Assembly: GCF_030013205.1 (NCBI RefSeq)
Contig: NZ_CP122648.1
Direction: 5' to 3' (one strand)
DNA from: Escherichia coli
Lineage (GTDB): Bacteria > Pseudomonadota > Gammaproteobacteria > Enterobacterales > Enterobacteriaceae
Length of the DNA stretch: 64,000 nt
Shown here: positions 24,994 to 49,509 of the stretch, in pieces
How the letters are laid out: the number at the start of each line of letters is the position of its first letter
Numbering within the stretch: the stretch's first letter is position 1
The notes under the pieces: generated by a model
Seen by the model: the letters and a program-made list of their open reading frames with translations, nothing else
Told to the model about the DNA's origin: nothing
Databases searched by the model: none
Translations under genes and position numbers: made by a program

Positions 24994-25349
24994 GGGTTAA
25001 TCCTCTTTGACGTATAAATTGCTGCACCAAAGGTGAACAGCGAAAAAAATAAAAATTAAAAAAGTAGCGTTGAGAAAAGTCTCGCTGACTACAGGAACAG
25101 ACTATTTTTCGCGACGCGAATTATCAATCTCTTTCTGTAACCAGAATGTAAGAACATGAGCAACCGCACATATTTTGATGATTTTTGTTACAAGGCTTAA
25201 GTTTGCAGTTGAAAGGCTTGCAGAAGAATAAAAACGTGAAATTCCAGCAAGATGAAAGCGGTTACATTTTATTTAATTATGTTTTGTGATTTTAAATTTG
25301 TTTTATGGATAAATTGCGAAGCGGAATTAATTCGCGAAGAAAAGCAGAA

Positions 25350-26052
25350 TAAATATCCTCCGGCATAGCCGGAGGTTTTTCAAATGCGCCTATAAGGCTC
25401 TCTTACCAGCCGCGCCCTAACAGGCGCACACGATCTGACATTTGCATCCAACTTCGTTACTTACGGCCCGTAAACGGGCTGCCCGGATAGGGAATCGATA
25501 ACTGCTCTCCCATTTTATCCTCTTCAAGCTGGTGCTTTATGTAATCCTGTATCTTCGCCGTGTTCTTACCCACCGTATCGACGTAGTACCCTCTGCACCA
25601 GAACTCTCTGTTCCTGTATTTGAATTTCAAATCACCAAACTGCTCGTAAAGCATCAGACTGCTTTTCCCTTTCAGATATCCCATAAAGCCGGATACGCTC
25701 ATTTTGGGCGGGATCTCCACAAGCATATGGATATGATCTGCACAGCATTCAGCTTCAAGAATCCGTACGCTTTTCCACTCACACAGCTTTCTCAAAATAC
25801 TGCCTATTGCTCTACGCTTCTCTCTGTAGAACACTTGTCTTCGGTATTTTGGCGCAAAAACTATGTGATATTTACAGTTCCATCGGGTGTGCGCTAAGCT
25901 CTTTTCGTTCCCCATTGGGACCCCCTTTTGATTTCTTGTTTGACACTTGCAGTTGCCAGACCGCAAGGTGTTTTAACAAATCAAAAGGGGTTTTAATAAC
26001 TGGCTCAAAGCTGAAAGCTTTCCGGAACCCCCAGCCTAGCTGGGGGTTTTCT
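25350..26052 (-). mobile_element. IS200 (IS200/IS605 family, about 0.7 kb) inserted between chiP and glnS; boundaries approximate
   Basis: Contains an IS200-type tnpA plus hairpins near both ends (26026..26048 aacccccagcctagctgggggtt; 25357..25375 cctccggcatagccggagg); no IS of this kind at this position in K-12 as I recall. Confidence 0.7.
25457..25915 (-). CDS. tnpA: IS200 transposase TnpA (Y1/HUH family, 152 aa)
   Basis: Track ORF frame trimmed to MGNEKSLAHTRWNCKYHIVFAPKYRRQVFY...; matches IS200 TnpA as I remember it, including the HIH motif (ADHIHML) and catalytic Tyr region. Confidence 0.9.
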   Translation of the reverse strand: MGNEKSLAHTRWNCKYHIVFAPKYRRQVFYREKRRAIGSILRKLCEWKSVRILEAECCADHIHMLVEIPPKMSVSGFMGYLKGKSSLMLYEQFGDLKFKYRNREFWCRGYYVDTVGKNTAKIQDYIKHQLEEDKMGEQLSIPYPGSPFTGRK

Positions 26053-26058
26053 GTGCAC

Positions 26059-26090
26059 AAAAAAACGCCGCAGAGCGCGGCGTTTTGGAT
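26059..26090 (-). terminator. Rho-independent terminator of glnS
   Basis: On the minus strand: gccgcgctctgcggc hairpin followed by about 7 T. Confidence 0.55.
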
Positions 26091-36636: not shown

Positions 36637-36713
36637 GGCTACGTAGCTCAGTTGGTTAGAGCACATCACTCATAATGATGGGGTCACAGGTTCGAATCCC
36701 GTCGTAGCCACCA
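36637..36713 (+). tRNA. metT: tRNA-Met (elongator, anticodon CAU)
   Basis: 77-nt sequence GGCTACGTAGCTCAGTTGGTTAGAGCACATCACTCATAATGATGGGGTCACAGGTTCGAATCCCGTCGTAGCCACCA; cloverleaf with CCA end. Confidence 0.93.
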
Positions 36714-36721
36714 TCTTTTTT

Positions 36722-36806
36722 GCGGGAGTGGCGAAATTGGTAGACGCACCAGATTTAGGTTCTGGCGCCGCAAGGTGTGCGAGTTCAAGTCTCGCCTCCC
36801 GCACCA
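36722..36806 (+). tRNA. leuW: tRNA-Leu (anticodon UAG)
   Basis: 85-nt GCGGGAGTGGCGAAATTGGTAGACGCACCAGATTTAGGTTCTGGCGCCGCAAGGTGTGCGAGTTCAAGTCTCGCCTCCCGCACCA with long variable arm. Confidence 0.93.
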
Positions 36807-36829
36807 TTCACCAGAAAGCGTTGTACGGA

Positions 36830-36904
36830 TGGGGTATCGCCAAGCGGTAAGGCACCGGTTTTTGATACCGGCATTCCCTGGTTCGAATCCAGGTACCCCA
36901 GCCA
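36830..36904 (+). tRNA. glnU: tRNA-Gln (anticodon UUG)
   Basis: 75-nt TGGGGTATCGCCAAGCGGTAAGGCACCGGTTTTTGATACCGGCATTCCCTGGTTCGAATCCAGGTACCCCAGCCA. Confidence 0.93.
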
Positions 36905-36938
36905 TATTCTTCGAGTAAGCGGTTCACCGCCCGGTTAT

Positions 36939-37013
36939 TGGGGTATCGCCAAGCGGTAAGGCACCGGTTTTTGATACCGGCATTCCCTGGTTCGAATCCA
37001 GGTACCCCAGCCA
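36939..37013 (+). tRNA. glnW: tRNA-Gln (anticodon UUG), second copy
   Basis: Identical 75-nt sequence to the preceding tRNA-Gln(UUG). Confidence 0.93.
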
Positions 37014-37028
37014 TCGAAGAAACAATCT

Positions 37029-37105
37029 GGCTACGTAGCTCAGTTGGTTAGAGCACATCACTCATAATGATGGGGTCACAGGTTCGAATCCCGTCGTAGC
37101 CACCA
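37029..37105 (+). tRNA. metU: tRNA-Met (elongator, anticodon CAU), second copy
   Basis: Identical 77-nt sequence to metT. Confidence 0.93.
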
Positions 37106-37153
37106 AATTCTGAATGTGTCGAATATGTTCGGCAAATTCAAAAACCAATTTGT

Positions 37154-37228
37154 TGGGGTATCGCCAAGCGGTAAGGCACCGGATTCTGATTCCGGCATTC
37201 CGAGGTTCGAATCCTCGTACCCCAGCCA
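37154..37228 (+). tRNA. glnV: tRNA-Gln (anticodon CUG)
   Basis: 75-nt TGGGGTATCGCCAAGCGGTAAGGCACCGGATTCTGATTCCGGCATTCCGAGGTTCGAATCCTCGTACCCCAGCCA; only one CUG copy present. Confidence 0.9.
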
Positions 37229-42776: not shown

Positions 42777-44315
42777 ATGGCTTTTGCCTCATTAATTGAA
42801 CGCCAGCGCATTCGCCTGCTGCTGGCGTTATTATTCGGTGCCTGCGGAACGCTGGCCTTCTCTCCTTACGACGTCTGGCCTGCGGCGATTATTTCGCTGA
42901 TGGGGCTTCAGGCGCTGACCTTTAACCGCCGTCCACTCCAGTCTGCCGCTATTGGCTTTTGCTGGGGATTTGGCCTCTTTGGCAGCGGTATTAACTGGGT
43001 CTATGTCAGCATCGCGACTTTTGGTGGAATGCCTGGCCCGGTTAACATCTTCCTGGTGGTGCTGCTGGCGGCGTATTTGTCGCTGTATACCGGACTGTTT
43101 GCTGGCGTGCTGTCGCGTCTGTGGCCGAAAACCACCTGGCTGCGCGTGGCGATTGCCGCCCCTGCTCTCTGGCAAGTGACCGAGTTTCTGCGCGGTTGGG
43201 TGCTGACCGGCTTCCCGTGGTTACAGTTCGGCTATAGCCAGATTGATGGCCCGTTAAAAGGGCTGGCACCGATAATGGGCGTGGAAGCCATTAACTTCCT
43301 GCTGATGATGGTTAGTGGCCTGCTGGCACTGGCGTTGGTCAAACGCAACTGGCGTCCGCTGGTAGTGGCCGTCGTGCTGTTTGCCCTTCCCTTCCCGCTG
43401 CGTTACATCCAGTGGTTTACCCCGCAACCGGAGAAAACCATTCAGGTTTCGATGGTTCAGGGCGATATTCCGCAATCACTGAAATGGGACGAAGGCCAGC
43501 TTCTTAATACGCTGAAGATTTACTACAACGCAACGGCACCGCTGATGGGCAAATCATCGTTGATTATCTGGCCGGAGTCGGCGATAACCGATCTGGAAAT
43601 TAATCAGCAACCGTTCCTCAAAGCACTGGACGGTGAGTTGCGCGATAAAGGGAGCTCGCTGGTAACCGGGATTGTTGACGCGCGTCTCAATAAGCAGAAC
43701 CGCTACGATACTTACAACACCATCATCACGCTGGGGAAAGGTGCGCCGTACAGCTACGAATCAGCCGATCGCTATAACAAAAACCATCTGGTGCCGTTTG
43801 GCGAGTTTGTCCCGCTGGAGTCGATTCTGCGTCCGTTAGCGCCGTTCTTTGATCTGCCGATGTCGTCGTTCAGCCGTGGGCCATATATCCAGCCACCGCT
43901 GTCGGTAAACGGTATTGAGCTTACTGCGGCTATTTGCTACGAGATCATTCTCGGCGAGCAAGTGCGTGATAACTTCCGCCCGGATACCGACTATCTGCTG
44001 ACTATCTCCAACGATGCGTGGTTTGGTAAGTCTATTGGTCCATGGCAGCACTTCCAGATGGCGCGAATGCGTGCGTTGGAGCTGGCGCGCCCATTGCTGC
44101 GTAGCACCAACAACGGTATTACGGCGGTGATTGGCCCGCAGGGTGAGATTCAGGCGATGATCCCGCAATTCACCCGCGAGGTGTTAACCACTAACGTGAC
44201 GCCGACTACCGGACTTACACCGTACGCACGTACCGGCAACTGGCCTCTGTGGGTGCTGACGGCACTGTTTGGTTTTGCTGCTGTGCTGATGAGCCTGCGT
44301 CAACGACGTAAATAA
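42777..44315 (+). CDS. lnt: Lnt, apolipoprotein N-acyltransferase (512 aa)
   Basis: Track ORF; N-terminal polytopic membrane region and C-terminal nitrilase-like domain. Confidence 0.96.
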
Positions 44316-44711
44316 TCCCTTCTTATCGTGCCGGAATACATCCCGTATTTCGGCACGCTCACCGGATGCGGCATCAGTGCGTTATCCGGATAACAAAATC
44401 CCCCTATCCAACTTTGGCACATCTATTGCTTTGTTATACAAGGCAAAGCTTGAACCAGCATCAGTACAACCCGGTTGCACCACAGCAATCCACGGGTAGC
44501 ACCAAAAGAGTGCATTTTAAGAATTTTGCTTCGGAATGGTGCGGCGCAACTCGCAAAAACAAACAATAAAACAGCAATATCTTTACATTTAGCCAAACTA
44601 AATGTTACCTAACAGGCACAACACTGCACAATAAAGTTGCAGACGATAACAACACAAACACTCACAACGGGTATCCATGCGTTCTTAACGCAGAAGATAA
44701 AGGAGTTGGAT

Positions 44712-45620
44712 ATGCAATTACGTAAACCTGCCACAGCAATCCTGGCCCTGGCGCTTTCCGCAGGACTGGCACAGGCAGATGACGCCGCCCCGGCAGCAGG
44801 CAGTACGCTGGACAAAATCGCCAAAAACGGTGTGATTGTCGTCGGTCACCGTGAATCTTCAGTACCTTTCTCTTATTACGACAATCAGCAAAAAGTGGTG
44901 GGTTACTCGCAGGATTACTCCAACGCCATTGTTGAAGCAGTGAAAAAGAAACTCAACAAACCGGACTTGCAGGTGAAACTGATTCCGATCACCTCACAAA
45001 ACCGTATTCCTCTGCTGCAAAACGGCACTTTCGATTTTGAATGTGGTTCCACCACCAATAACGTCGAACGCCAGAAACAGGCGGCTTTCTCTGACACTAT
45101 TTTCGTGGTCGGCACGCGCCTGTTGACCAAAAAGGGGGGCGATATCAAAGATTTTGCCGACCTGAAAGGCAAAGCCGTAGTCGTCACTTCCGGCACTACT
45201 TCTGAAGTTTTGCTCAACAAACTGAATGAAGAGCAAAAAATGAATATGCGCATCATCAGCGCCAAAGATCACGGTGACTCTTTCCGCACCCTGGAAAGCG
45301 GTCGTGCCGTTGCCTTTATGATGGATGATGCTCTGCTGGCTGGTGAACGTGCGAAAGCGAAGAAACCAGACAACTGGGAAATCGTCGGCAAGCCGCAGTC
45401 TCAGGAAGCCTACGGTTGTATGTTGCGTAAAGACGATCCGCAGTTCAAAAAGCTGATGGATGACACCATCGCGCAGGTGCAGACCTCCGGTGAAGCGGAA
45501 AAATGGTTTGATAAATGGTTCAAAAATCCAATTCCGCCGAAAAACCTGAACATGAATTTCGAACTGTCAGACGAAATGAAAGCACTGTTCAAAGAACCGA
45601 ATGACAAGGCACTGAACTAA
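44712..45620 (+). CDS. gltI: GltI, glutamate/aspartate periplasmic binding protein (302 aa)
   Basis: Track ORF frame trimmed to MQLRKPATAILALALSAGLAQA signal peptide. Confidence 0.95.
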   Translation: MQLRKPATAILALALSAGLAQADDAAPAAGSTLDKIAKNGVIVVGHRESSVPFSYYDNQQKVVGYSQDYSNAIVEAVKKKLNKPDLQVKLIPITSQNRIPLLQNGTFDFECGSTTNNVERQKQAAFSDTIFVVGTRLLTKKGGDIKDFADLKGKAVVVTSGTTSEVLLNKLNEEQKMNMRIISAKDHGDSFRTLESGRAVAFMMDDALLAGERAKAKKPDNWEIVGKPQSQEAYGCMLRKDDPQFKKLMDDTIAQVQTSGEAEKWFDKWFKNPIPPKNLNMNFELSDEMKALFKEPNDKALN

Positions 45621-45776
45621 TTACAAGAACCAGGGGCGGAAATTCCAGCCCTCTCGATTGTTACGTAGCACGGACAGACTATACGCCTGATGGTCGTTCC
45701 CCATCGGGCCTGAAAACCGCAATACGCTGGGTAACAATCTTCGAGGGTAGCAGTTAACGCTGCTACCCTCTTTTTT
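45621..45776 (+). ncRNA. sroC: SroC-like sRNA in the gltI-gltJ intergenic region
   Basis: About 155-nt intergenic segment ending in a strong terminator (gagggtagcagttaacgctgctaccctc + tttttt); SroC is known at this position in E. coli/Salmonella. 5' end not determinable from sequence. Confidence 0.65.
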
Positions 45777-45789
45777 CTGGAGTAGATTT

Positions 45790-46530
45790 ATGTCTATAGA
45801 CTGGAACTGGGGTATTTTTTTACAACAAGCCCCGTTCGGCAACACCACCTATCTTGGTTGGATCTGGAGTGGTTTTCAGGTGACGATCGCTTTGTCGATC
45901 TGCGCCTGGATTATCGCTTTCCTCGTCGGTTCATTTTTCGGCATTTTACGTACCGTTCCAAACCGTTTTCTCTCCGGTCTGGGTACGTTGTATGTCGAAC
46001 TGTTCCGCAACGTGCCGTTGATTGTGCAATTCTTTACCTGGTATCTGGTGATCCCGGAGCTGTTGCCGGAGAAAATCGGCATGTGGTTTAAGGCCGAGCT
46101 GGATCCCAATATTCAGTTTTTCCTTTCATCCATGCTTTGCCTGGGGCTGTTTACCGCCGCCCGTGTTTGCGAACAGGTACGCGCCGCGATTCAGTCGTTG
46201 CCGCGTGGGCAAAAGAATGCCGCGCTGGCAATGGGGCTGACGCTACCGCAGGCTTATCGCTACGTACTGCTGCCTAATGCTTATCGCGTTATCGTCCCGC
46301 CGATGACTTCCGAGATGATGAACCTGGTGAAAAACTCCGCCATCGCCTCGACTATCGGTCTGGTGGATATGGCAGCGCAGGCCGGTAAATTGCTTGATTA
46401 CTCAGCCCACGCCTGGGAGTCGTTTACCGCCATTACGCTTGCGTATGTGTTGATTAACGCTTTTATCATGCTGGTGATGACGCTGGTTGAACGTAAAGTT
46501 CGCCTGCCTGGCAACATGGGGGGCAAATAA
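45790..46530 (+). CDS. gltJ: GltJ, glutamate/aspartate ABC permease (246 aa)
   Basis: Track ORF; polar amino-acid permease; operon context. Confidence 0.95.
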
Positions 46531-47204
46531 TGTACGAGTTTGACTGGAGTTCCATTGTCCCTTCCCTGCCATATCTGCTCGACGGGCTGGTGATCACGCT
46601 GAAAATCACCGTCACAGCAGTCGTGATTGGTATTTTGTGGGGCACCATGCTGGCGGTGATGCGCTTATCCAGCTTCGCGCCTGTTGCGTGGTTTGCCAAA
46701 GCCTACGTTAACGTGTTCCGCTCGATTCCTTTAGTTATGGTTTTGCTGTGGTTTTACCTGATTGTGCCGGGTTTTCTGCAAAACGTGCTGGGATTATCGC
46801 CAAAAAATGATATCCGTTTAATTTCGGCAATGGTGGCGTTTTCGATGTTTGAAGCGGCCTACTATTCAGAGATTATCCGTGCCGGTATTCAAAGTATTTC
46901 CCGTGGTCAGTCTAGCGCCGCGCTGGCGTTGGGGATGACTCACTGGCAGTCGATGAAACTGATTATTCTGCCGCAGGCTTTCCGCGCGATGGTGCCGCTG
47001 CTGCTCACTCAGGGCATCGTACTGTTCCAGGATACCTCACTGGTGTATGTGTTATCTCTGGCCGATTTCTTCCGTACCGCTTCAACCATTGGTGAGCGTG
47101 ATGGTACGCAGGTCGAGATGATCCTGTTTGCCGGATTTGTTTATTTCGTTATTAGCCTTAGCGCGTCGTTGTTGGTCAGCTACTTGAAAAGAAGGACAGC
47201 TTAA
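46530..47204 (+). CDS. gltK: GltK, glutamate/aspartate ABC permease (224 aa)
   Basis: Track ORF; start overlaps gltJ stop. Confidence 0.95.
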
Positions 47205-47929
47205 TGATTACCCTGAAAAATGTTTCAAAATGGTATGGTCACTTTCAGGTGCTGACCGACTGCTCAACCGAAGTGAAAAAAGGCGAAGTGGTGGTGGTTT
47301 GCGGCCCGTCTGGTTCCGGCAAATCAACGCTGATTAAAACCGTCAACGGCCTCGAACCGGTGCAGCAAGGTGAAATTACCGTCGATGGCATCGTGGTTAA
47401 CGATAAGAAAACCGATCTGGCAAAGCTGCGTTCCCGCGTCGGGATGGTGTTCCAGCATTTCGAGTTGTTCCCCCATTTGTCGATTATTGAAAACCTGACC
47501 CTGGCGCAGGTGAAAGTGCTTAAACGCGATAAAGCACCCGCTCGTGAAAAAGCATTGAAATTGCTGGAGCGCGTGGGACTTTCCGCACATGCCAATAAAT
47601 TTCCGGCGCAGCTTTCCGGCGGTCAGCAACAGCGTGTGGCGATCGCTCGCGCATTGTGTATGGATCCTATTGCCATGCTGTTCGACGAACCGACATCGGC
47701 GCTGGATCCGGAGATGATCAACGAAGTGCTGGACGTAATGGTCGAACTGGCGAACGAAGGAATGACCATGATGGTGGTGACCCACGAAATGGGCTTTGCC
47801 CGTAAAGTGGCGAATCGGGTGATCTTTATGGACGAGGGTAAAATTGTCGAAGACTCGCCGAAAGACGCTTTCTTCGATGATCCGAAATCGGACCGCGCAA
47901 AAGACTTCCTCGCGAAAATCCTGCATTAA
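47204..47929 (+). CDS. gltL: GltL, glutamate/aspartate ABC ATP-binding protein (241 aa)
   Basis: Track ORF; Walker [10 protein letters not shown], signature LSGGQQQR. Confidence 0.96.
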
Positions 47930-48046
47930 TCACTCTGGCGCGCATACCCAATTGCGCGCCATCTCACGCTTTATCGTTTCGCCCCTCGTATCTGTTACAT
48001 CCTGGCGTTACCCTTGTCGCAAAGAAGCACACAACAAGGAGCAACA

Positions 48047-48982
48047 ATGGCACTGCCAATTCTGTTAGATTGCGACCCAGGTCATGACGACGCTATCGCA
48101 ATAGTTCTCGCCCTCGCCTCACCAGAGCTTGATGTCAAAGCAATTACGTCTTCCGCCGGAAACCAGACACCAGAAAAAACCTTACGCAATGTTCTGCGTA
48201 TGCTGACCTTGCTTAATCGCACCGATATTCCGGTAGCAGGCGGCGCGGTAAAACCGTTAATGCGTGAGTTGATTATCGCGGACAATGTGCACGGCGAAAG
48301 CGGTCTCGACGGCCCGGCATTACCGGAACCGACGTTCGCACCGCAAAACTGTACGGCGGTAGAGCTGATGGCGAAAACACTACGTGAAAGTGCGGAACCT
48401 GTCACGATTGTTTCTACCGGACCGCAAACTAACGTTGCCTTGCTGCTCAATAGCCACCCGGAACTGCATAGCAAAATTGCCCGTATCGTGATTATGGGCG
48501 GTGCAATGGGGCTTGGTAACTGGACGCCTGCGGCTGAATTTAATATTTACGTTGACCCGGAAGCGGCAGAAATTGTCTTCCAGTCAGGGATCCCGGTGGT
48601 GATGGCCGGTCTGGATGTTACTCACAAAGCACAAATTCACGTTGAGGACACCGAGCGTTTCCGCGCCATTGGCAACCCTGTTTCAACCATTGTTGCCGAA
48701 CTGCTGGATTTCTTCCTCGAATATCATAAAGACGAAAAATGGGGCTTTGTCGGCGCACCGCTGCATGACCCATGCACCATCGCCTGGCTGTTAAAACCGG
48801 AGTTGTTTACCACTGTTGAGCGCTGGGTTGGCGTGGAAACACAAGGGAAATATACCCAGGGTATGACGGTTGTTGATTATTATTATCTGACCGGCAATAA
48901 ACCGAATGCTACTGTAATGGTCGATGTTGATCGTCAGGGCTTTGTTGATTTACTGGCTGATCGTCTGAAATTTTACGCTTAA
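48047..48982 (+). CDS. rihA: RihA, pyrimidine-specific ribonucleoside hydrolase (311 aa)
   Basis: Track ORF frame trimmed to [22 protein letters not shown] (nucleoside hydrolase DxDxxxDD motif). Confidence 0.95.
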
Positions 48983-49026
48983 TCACTCGCCGGATGACAT
49001 CACGCCATCCGGCACCACTCATTTCA

Positions 49027-49509
49027 TTAAGGCTCGAACGGGCGTCTCTGGAACTGGTCATGACCACATTTCGGGCATAGCGTCAGCACTTCCGGTGTAT
49101 AGATCGGGAGATGGAAGTGACATTTCTCGCAGACCAGATTTCCCAGCCCTACCACTTCTCCGCTGTGATAAACCCCGTGATGATTGAGGTCCTGGAAAAC
49201 TTCGCGCCATTCAAGCTGCGTTTTATCGGTGATGTCTGCCAGCTCCTGCCACAAGCTTTCTTTAATCACCCGCATAAAGACGCTGTCAGACTCTTCTTTC
49301 AGGCTCTCTTCATAGCTCATGGCGAACTCTTCCAGGTCACGTCTGACAGCTCGCGTCAGCTCATCGACTTCGGTTCGCGTTAACTCCCCTGTTTTTATTA
49401 CGCGCTCGCGCGCCTGTTCCACCAGTGCGTCGATATCACGTTCGCCATTGCGCAGGCGTTCGCTCAGTGACGCGACCAGTTCACGGTAATATTGAGCAAC
49501 CTTGTTCAT
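49027..49509 (-). CDS. ybeL: YbeL (DUF1451 zinc-ribbon protein, 160 aa)
   Basis: Track ORF; C-terminal CxxC...CxxC (CEKCHF...CPKCGH); convergent with rihA. Confidence 0.9.
   Translation of the reverse strand: MNKVAQYYRELVASLSERLRNGERDIDALVEQARERVIKTGELTRTEVDELTRAVRRDLEEFAMSYEESLKEESDSVFMRVIKESLWQELADITDKTQLEWREVFQDLNHHGVYHSGEVVGLGNLVCEKCHFHLPIYTPEVLTLCPKCGHDQFQRRPFEP

Follow-up and report, generated by a model that had tools for sequence, protein, structure and literature searches.

The gltI-gltJ spacer of an Escherichia coli chromosome carries sroC, the gene of an Hfq-binding sponge RNA directed at GcvB

Why should a strong intrinsic terminator lie inside a polycistronic unit, between the first gene of the gltIJKL operon and the three genes behind it? 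The question is raised by a stretch of 64,000 nucleotides, here called the window, in which a sequence-only reading had placed an SroC-type small RNA (sRNA) between gltI and gltJ. The window belongs to an E. coli chromosome: the 601 nt around the spacer match several swine E. coli strains at 100% identity and occur in 5421 of the 5426 complete genomes of the species, and from about 9.6 kb to the window end the identity to CFSAN018748 is 99.9%. The gene neighbourhood is lnt, gltI, gltJ, gltK, gltL and rihA, all on the plus strand. GltI, GltK, Lnt and RihA passed their NCBIfam cut-offs, and all of the gene names of the neighbourhood are given by RefSeq in an identical strain. The features of the operon and of its spacer are as follows.

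44712-45620, plus strand: gltI, periplasmic glutamate/aspartate-binding protein of 302 aa and parental gene of SroC (NCBIfam NF008063, 668.5 bits, cut-off 375)
45616-45778, plus strand: sroC, 163-nt Hfq-binding sRNA and GcvB sponge, by Rfam RF00369 and by identity to MG1655 b4763
45779-45782, plus strand: ribosome-binding site of gltJ, GGAG, read from the sequence and starting 3 bases past the U run
45790-45792, plus strand: start codon of gltJ, ATG, with 13 nt between it and the U run
45790-47929, plus strand: gltJ, gltK and gltL together, the permease and ATPase genes
45790-46530, plus strand: gltJ, named by RefSeq in a 100% identical strain
46530-47204, plus strand: gltK, NF011687 match of 479 bits and RefSeq name in the identical strain
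47204-47929, plus strand: gltL, RefSeq name in the identical strain

The spacer between gltI and gltJ measures 169 nt (45621-45789) and the four glt genes share the plus strand, in agreement with the about 170 bp inside a gltIJKL operon that had been described. A minus-strand open reading frame at 45621-45848 (75 aa, GTG start) was treated as spurious, since a conserved, structured RNA and the start of gltJ lie opposite it.

The covariance-model scan that had been proposed as a check for SroC gave a full-length match. Rfam sroC (RF00369) aligned with positions 45616-45778 of the plus strand over model positions 1-163 of 163, with a score of 174.8 bits (E 7e-37) against a gathering threshold of 45 bits. 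Around sroC, 201 of 201 positions are identical to E. coli K-12 MG1655, in which the ncRNA sroC (b4763, 163 nt) is annotated at 686681-686843. This is the corresponding position between gltI and gltJ; the MG1655 gene overlaps the end of gltI by 5 nt and ends 11 nt before gltJ. The sroC stretch occurs in 5421 of the 5426 complete E. coli genomes, and in 5249 genomes its 163 nt are at least 99% identical. To speak of an SroC-type signature in this spacer was therefore an understatement, as the stretch is base for base the K-12 gene itself. The extent first given, 45621-45776, was right in placing the RNA in the spacer and slightly short at both ends, for the annotated RNA runs from 45616 to 45778 and begins within the last codons of gltI. 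The 5' end lies at 45613-45616, of which 45616 follows the MG1655 annotation and about 45613 is implied by the numbering used for Salmonella. Thus, positions 45616-45778 are taken as the E. coli sroC gene, with its published transcript, processing and sponge mechanism, at a probability of about 0.97.

The gene is not listed in PGAP-annotated E. coli genomes, the closest relative of the window included, which explains why it can look unannotated. This absence is an annotation gap and reflects no biological difference. The feature, its mechanism and its link to GcvB are already known, and all have been published; what the call from raw sequence recovers is a regulatory RNA that has been studied experimentally and yet is missing from most automated annotations of E. 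coli.

The RNA has a pronounced secondary structure. The predicted fold of the 163-nt SroC has an energy of -66.3 kcal/mol, compared with -40.5 +/- 4.0 for dinucleotide shuffles (z -6.5; 0 of 200 as good). Besides a long helix and the terminator hairpin, it contains two stem-loops.

45634-45651, plus strand: stem-loop 1 (SL1), SroC nt 19-36, from the Rfam consensus and the minimum free energy fold
45685-45709, plus strand: stem-loop 2 (SL2), SroC nt 70-94, with a 9-bp stem, from the minimum free energy fold and the Rfam structure; the second GcvB site lies in its loop

Orthologues were collected by scanning one genome per species with a sequence pattern; this gave 92 stretches, essentially all from Enterobacteriaceae. 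The genera with the pattern include Escherichia, Salmonella, Citrobacter, Klebsiella, Raoultella, Enterobacter, Kluyvera, Kosakonia, Lelliottia, Phytobacter, Mangrovibacter and others. The alignment made from them holds 83 sequences, 82 of them distinct, from about 20 genera. Over the whole alignment 90% of the cells are paired, compared with 40-50% when the partners are slid, and both sides have changed in 14 pairs. The covariation score in the 82 distinct sequences is 0.21, against 0.10 in shuffles. In stem-loop 1, 90.7% of the cells are paired and 2 of the 6 pairs show compensatory changes; in stem-loop 2 the figures are 96.7% and 6 of 9, and two-sided changes occur in 5 of the 7 pairs of the long helix. 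The core of the terminator stem and the U run are invariant, and the hairpin is followed by U6-U8 in all 82 distinct sequences.

Some of the enterobacterial loci depart from the usual arrangement. The body of sroC is interrupted in five of them (L021 at 6742-7050; L060 on the minus strand, from 4441 down; L080 at 1130-1440; L071; L025) by an insert of 100-170 nt that separates SL2 from the 3' strand of the long helix, with the terminator and the gltJ start intact downstream. The insert in L021, L060 and L080 is close to the ERIC1R and ERIC2 primers and is presumably an ERIC-type repeat. In another subset, which includes some Citrobacter and Phytobacter (L030, L046, L074, L061, L069 and possibly L040), the usual end of gltI is absent just 5' of SL1. 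A different upstream gene was considered for this subset and rejected, since the divergent sequence (…GAGACAGCTTGAAGGATGAAGTGTAA) looks like the end of an ERIC-type repeat that has been inserted after gltI and before SL1. With an ERIC-like sequence in this place, the usual site of RNase E processing would be moved away. The record L080 (CACSKA010000002.1) is labelled Chryseobacterium sp. 18061 and shows a typical enterobacterial gltI-sroC-gltJ locus, very similar to that of L071, which is labelled Citrobacter sp. 18056 and comes from the same project. The record is probably a mislabelled or contaminated assembly.

SroC is a sponge of another sRNA, GcvB, and the segments for this pairing can be located in the window. 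The partner used here is the GcvB of MG1655, the gcvB gene lying outside the window.

45672-45679, plus strand: GcvB-binding site GGACAGAC, SroC nt 57-64, with 8 perfect pairs to GcvB nt 156-163 (R3/SL4 region)
45694-45700, plus strand: GcvB-binding site UCGUUCC, SroC nt 79-85 in the SL2 loop, with 7 perfect pairs to GcvB nt 13-19 (SL1 of GcvB)
44640-44671, plus strand: C/A-rich element in the gltI 5' UTR, predicted target of the GU-rich R1 region of GcvB, from duplex energy and the literature

The two SroC sites are named here by their GcvB partners, because the BS1/BS2 labels of PMC4474525 are ambiguous. Their spacing is exactly 14 nt, and the published description is of two sites of 7-8 nt that are 14 nt apart (Miyakoshi, Chao and Vogel, PMC4474525). 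In Salmonella, the C-to-G changes at SroC C63 and C87 were rescued by GcvB G160C and G14C, respectively (PMC4474525). C63, the partner of G160C, is nt 60 in the present numbering and lies within GGACAGAC; C87, the partner of G14C, is nt 84 and lies within UCGUUCC. In all, the positions that were probed or mutated in PMC4474525, G61, C63, G65, G84 and C87, become G58, C60, G62, G81 and C84 here. This constant offset of 3 sets the Salmonella 5' end 3 nt upstream of the MG1655 annotation.

Taken by themselves, the two complementarities do not exceed chance: the best SroC-GcvB energy was equalled in 79 of 200 shuffled SroC sequences and the second best in 33 of 200. The meaning of the two short sites comes from the published compensatory mutants and not from the statistics of complementarity. 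Their invariance among the orthologues was produced by construction, since the collecting pattern contained most of both sites. Predictions of full-length duplexes, of SroC or the gltI UTR with the whole of GcvB, gave uninformative end-to-end pairings and were replaced by local segments.

The site in the gltI 5' UTR stands out more clearly. With nt 61-90 (R1) of MG1655 GcvB it forms a duplex of -31.5 kcal/mol, and 0 of 500 shuffles were as good. The best R1 site of the gltI-sroC locus is the 40-nt segment from 44635 (-37.2 kcal/mol), where the locus mean is -15.1 +/- 4.6. This element makes the parental mRNA a GcvB target, and gltI is treated as such in the literature on SroC (PMC4474525). R1 has also been reported to promote the production of SroC independently of the known site (PMC11347164). 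A second R1 site was sought near the SroC 5' end and the terminator, and none was found there; the sole outlier in 44560-45790 is the known site in the 5' UTR.

The 3' end of SroC is formed by the element to which the opening question refers.

45743-45776, plus strand: Rho-independent terminator, 3' end of SroC, consisting of a hairpin at 45743-45770 and U6

The hairpin has a 12-bp stem with 7 G-C pairs, a 4-nt loop and an energy of -21.3 kcal/mol, and TTTTTT follows directly at 45771-45776. A loose terminator scan of 3.9 kb (44300-48200) gave 9 sites where shuffles gave 5.4 +/- 2.0, so that the number of sites alone proves nothing. The sroC hairpin, however, is by far the strongest of the nine, and the strong intrinsic terminator that had been described as closing the spacer is borne out by its stem, its energy and its U6.

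Attenuated read-through into gltJKL, which the sequence-only reading had expected from this arrangement, agrees with two published studies. The gltIJKL operon has a single promoter, and its leaky Rho-independent terminator yields a monocistronic gltI mRNA and SroC (Miyakoshi et al. 2015, PMC4474525). On northern blots of E. coli, a gltI-sroC transcript of ~1200 nt was accompanied by a longer species of ~2500 nt, and transcription stops at sroC or further downstream (PMC11347164). A scan of 44300-48200 for sigma-70-like promoters found none, either for gltJKL or for sroC; it was a crude consensus scan that was blank also upstream of gltI, where a promoter must exist. As no promoter-like site was detected in this region, gltJ may be reachable only via read-through.

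The strength of the terminator may differ among relatives. CAGTTAA at 45752-45758 (alignment columns 180-186) is a 7-nt insert found only in the five Escherichia sequences; with it the terminator stem grows from 9 to 12 bp, and its energy goes from about -13.1 to -21.3 kcal/mol. In Kluyvera this spot is occupied by a different insert. An insert that lengthens the stem in Escherichia only suggests that genera may differ in terminator strength, and perhaps in read-through into gltJKL.

A terminator in this position might also be a regulated attenuator, in which an alternative pairing or a bound factor tunes both the expression of gltJKL and the release of SroC. Regulated termination was raised as a possibility by Miyakoshi et al. 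(PMC4474525). The blocks CUCGAUUG and AAUCUUCGAGGGUAG, which lie outside the GcvB sites, are invariant across genera, and a competing pairing can be named: UCUCG (nt 37-41) pairs with CGAGG (nt 127-131) in the predicted folds of transcripts cut at nt 131-143, and the Rfam consensus structure contains these pairs. In the full-length RNA, the complete terminator is favored by about 6.5 kcal/mol in the predicted folds. CGAGG (45742-45746) includes the base of the 5' arm of the terminator, of which GAGG at 45743-45746 forms the lowest four stem pairs. The comparison of sequences, however, does not favor such a switch. Four of the five competing pairs never or hardly vary and no covariation is found for them; the variable one, nt 39-129, fails to pair in 18 of the 82 sequences, whereas the terminator pair of the same base, 129-154, is paired in all sequences with letters there. 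The idea that covariation supports a long-helix base competing with the terminator was thus rejected, the pairs being invariant or broken, and the competition is kept only as a reading of low probability. No ligand or factor is known, and the blank search for further GcvB R1 sites around the 5' end and the terminator speaks in the same direction. We consider a regulated attenuator unlikely.

The more specific proposal, that UCUCG (45652-45656) and CGAGG (45742-45746) act as a kinetic competitor of the terminator which is predicted to form first during transcription, is a doubtful one that comes from the modeled folds. If it were true, the occupied stem base would mean that leakiness is built into the terminator and open to adjustment, by Hfq or a factor on the 5' strand for instance. 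The competitor would then set the ratio of GltI to GltJKL and how fast SroC is released and, by way of SroC, also the level of GcvB; the 7-nt insert confined to Escherichia would shift the balance relative to Salmonella, Klebsiella and Enterobacter.

It is very improbable that the hairpin is mainly a barrier to 3'-to-5' exonucleases, which would stabilise the upstream gltI part of a full-length mRNA and terminate nothing. ABC-transporter operons commonly raise the level of the binding protein by stabilisation of the first cistron (PMC4474525), and a hairpin of -21 kcal/mol would block exonucleases too. The U6-U8 directly after the hairpin in every distinct sequence is, however, a hallmark of intrinsic terminators; plasmid constructs give a defined SroC 3' end together with a read-through band, and the authors of that work explicitly contrast the locus with the stabilisation model (PMC4474525). 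The two roles are compatible and do not exclude each other.

That the spacer RNA is an inert remnant of decay, and the hairpin merely a means of setting the GltI:GltJKL ratio, is barely credible. In its favor, the short GcvB complementarities are not significant by themselves. The reading is already refuted by the published double compensatory SroC/GcvB mutants of Salmonella, which restore regulation, and is opposed by chromosomal point mutations in the two sites that stabilise GcvB as much as deletion of sroC does, by the equal function of the E. coli homologues (all PMC4474525), by the dominance of GcvB-SroC chimeras in stationary-phase RIL-seq of E. coli (PMC9299463), and by the covarying stems and conserved loop across genera.

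An sroC gene that encodes a GcvB sponge and ends at a leaky terminator therefore remains the preferred reading. For the window locus, the transcripts, the processing by RNase E and Hfq and the sponge activity are taken from published work on Salmonella and on K-12, whose sroC sequence is identical. In the proposed sequence of events, transcription from the single gltI promoter would either stop at 45743-45776 or continue into gltJKL. Stopping would give the gltI-sroC transcript of ~1.2 kb, and in this way an excess of the GltI binding protein over the membrane components. The terminated transcript would then be cut in the last gltI codons by RNase E, for which Hfq and a 5'-monophosphate left by upstream decay serve as guides, and the stable SroC of ~160 nt would be released. 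The released RNA is expected to pair with GcvB, GGACAGAC with nt 156-163 and UCGUUCC of the SL2 loop with nt 13-19, and to bring about RNase E-dependent decay of GcvB. This decay would lift GcvB repression from the mRNAs of amino-acid transport and metabolism, among them gltI itself through its C/A-rich 5'-UTR site.

Published experiments bear on these steps. The 5' end of SroC is made by RNase E and needs Hfq and a 5'-monophosphate on the substrate, and depletion of GcvB by SroC likewise requires Hfq and RNase E (PMC4474525). In Salmonella without sroC, the half-life of GcvB rose from 1.7 to more than 15 min, and the SroC/GcvB homologues of E. coli were found to be equally functional (PMC4474525). 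TIER-seq in E. coli placed the strongest RNase E site in the gltI 3' UTR, at the SroC processing site (PMC11347164), and in stationary-phase RIL-seq SroC was the partner in about 70% of the GcvB chimeras (PMC9299463). Further reported roles of SroC include sponging of MgrR and repression of fliE and flhBAE (review PMC9438474). SroC couples the expression of one amino-acid transporter operon to the GcvB regulon as a whole, which comprises about 1% of the genes of E. coli.

Several other observations were made in the window. On the minus strand at 25925-26048, between chiP and glnS, a full-length Rfam match to STnc490 was found (146 bits), just upstream of an IS200-type transposase open reading frame (25457-25966, minus strand). 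The surrounding block of 725 nt (25345-26069) and a second IS200C copy elsewhere in CFSAN018748 share 98.9% identity. The match thus has the appearance of an inserted IS200 element's left end, together with the RNA structure that goes with it. The tRNA array at 36637-37228 consists of Met, Leu, Gln(UUG), Gln(UUG), Met and Gln(CUG), six genes in all; seven are annotated in CFSAN018748, the additional one a tRNA-Gln. The two arrays differ by about 113 nt in the alignment, which is consistent with loss of one repeated tRNA-Gln unit from the window array. At the rihA-ybeL junction (48982-49027), ybeL follows rihA directly. In MG1655 about 7.9 kb with ybeQ, ybeR, djlB, ybeT, ybeU, djlC and hscC lie between the two genes, and this ybeQ-hscC block of ~7.9 kb is absent from both the window strain and CFSAN018748. 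The beginning of the window, 1-9630, is a variable region rich in mobile elements. The neighbouring region to be expected in CFSAN018748 gives no alignment with its first ~2.8 kb; positions 3586-9632 are only 99.3% identical to a CFSAN018748 region with an Rhs core protein, a sel1-repeat protein and remnants of ISAs1/IS630 transposases; and CFSAN018748 has an IS200C copy near the equivalent of 1-9630 that the window is without.

The closest known system is SroC of K-12 (b4763) and Salmonella (RF00369), which has the same position between gltI and gltJ, the same terminator, the two GcvB sites and the same fold. The K-12 gene is identical in sequence, and no difference exists in the sRNA itself. 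CpxQ, SdhX, NarS, MalH and OppZ resemble SroC in that they are cut by RNase E from a parental mRNA, end at the intrinsic terminator of that mRNA, are bound by Hfq and have no promoter of their own (PMC9438474). Unlike these RNAs, SroC arises from a terminator internal to its operon and not from the operon end, and its main target is another sRNA (GcvB, and also MgrR), where theirs are mRNAs.

As a by-product of a transcript that pairs with an sRNA and lowers its activity, SroC also resembles the chbBC spacer, which acts on ChiX, and 3'ETS-leuZ, which acts on RyhB and RybB. The consequences of pairing differ: SroC leads to cleavage of GcvB by RNase E, whereas pairing with chbBC exposes ChiX to PNPase (PMC4474525), and SroC itself is not degraded together with GcvB (PMC4474525). 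In its effect on the operon, the sroC hairpin can be compared with the REP elements between malE and malF, which likewise leave the product of the first gene in excess over the downstream membrane components. Unlike the malE-malF REP elements, it is followed by a U-tract and acts as a leaky terminator, and not just as a block to exonucleases (PMC4474525).
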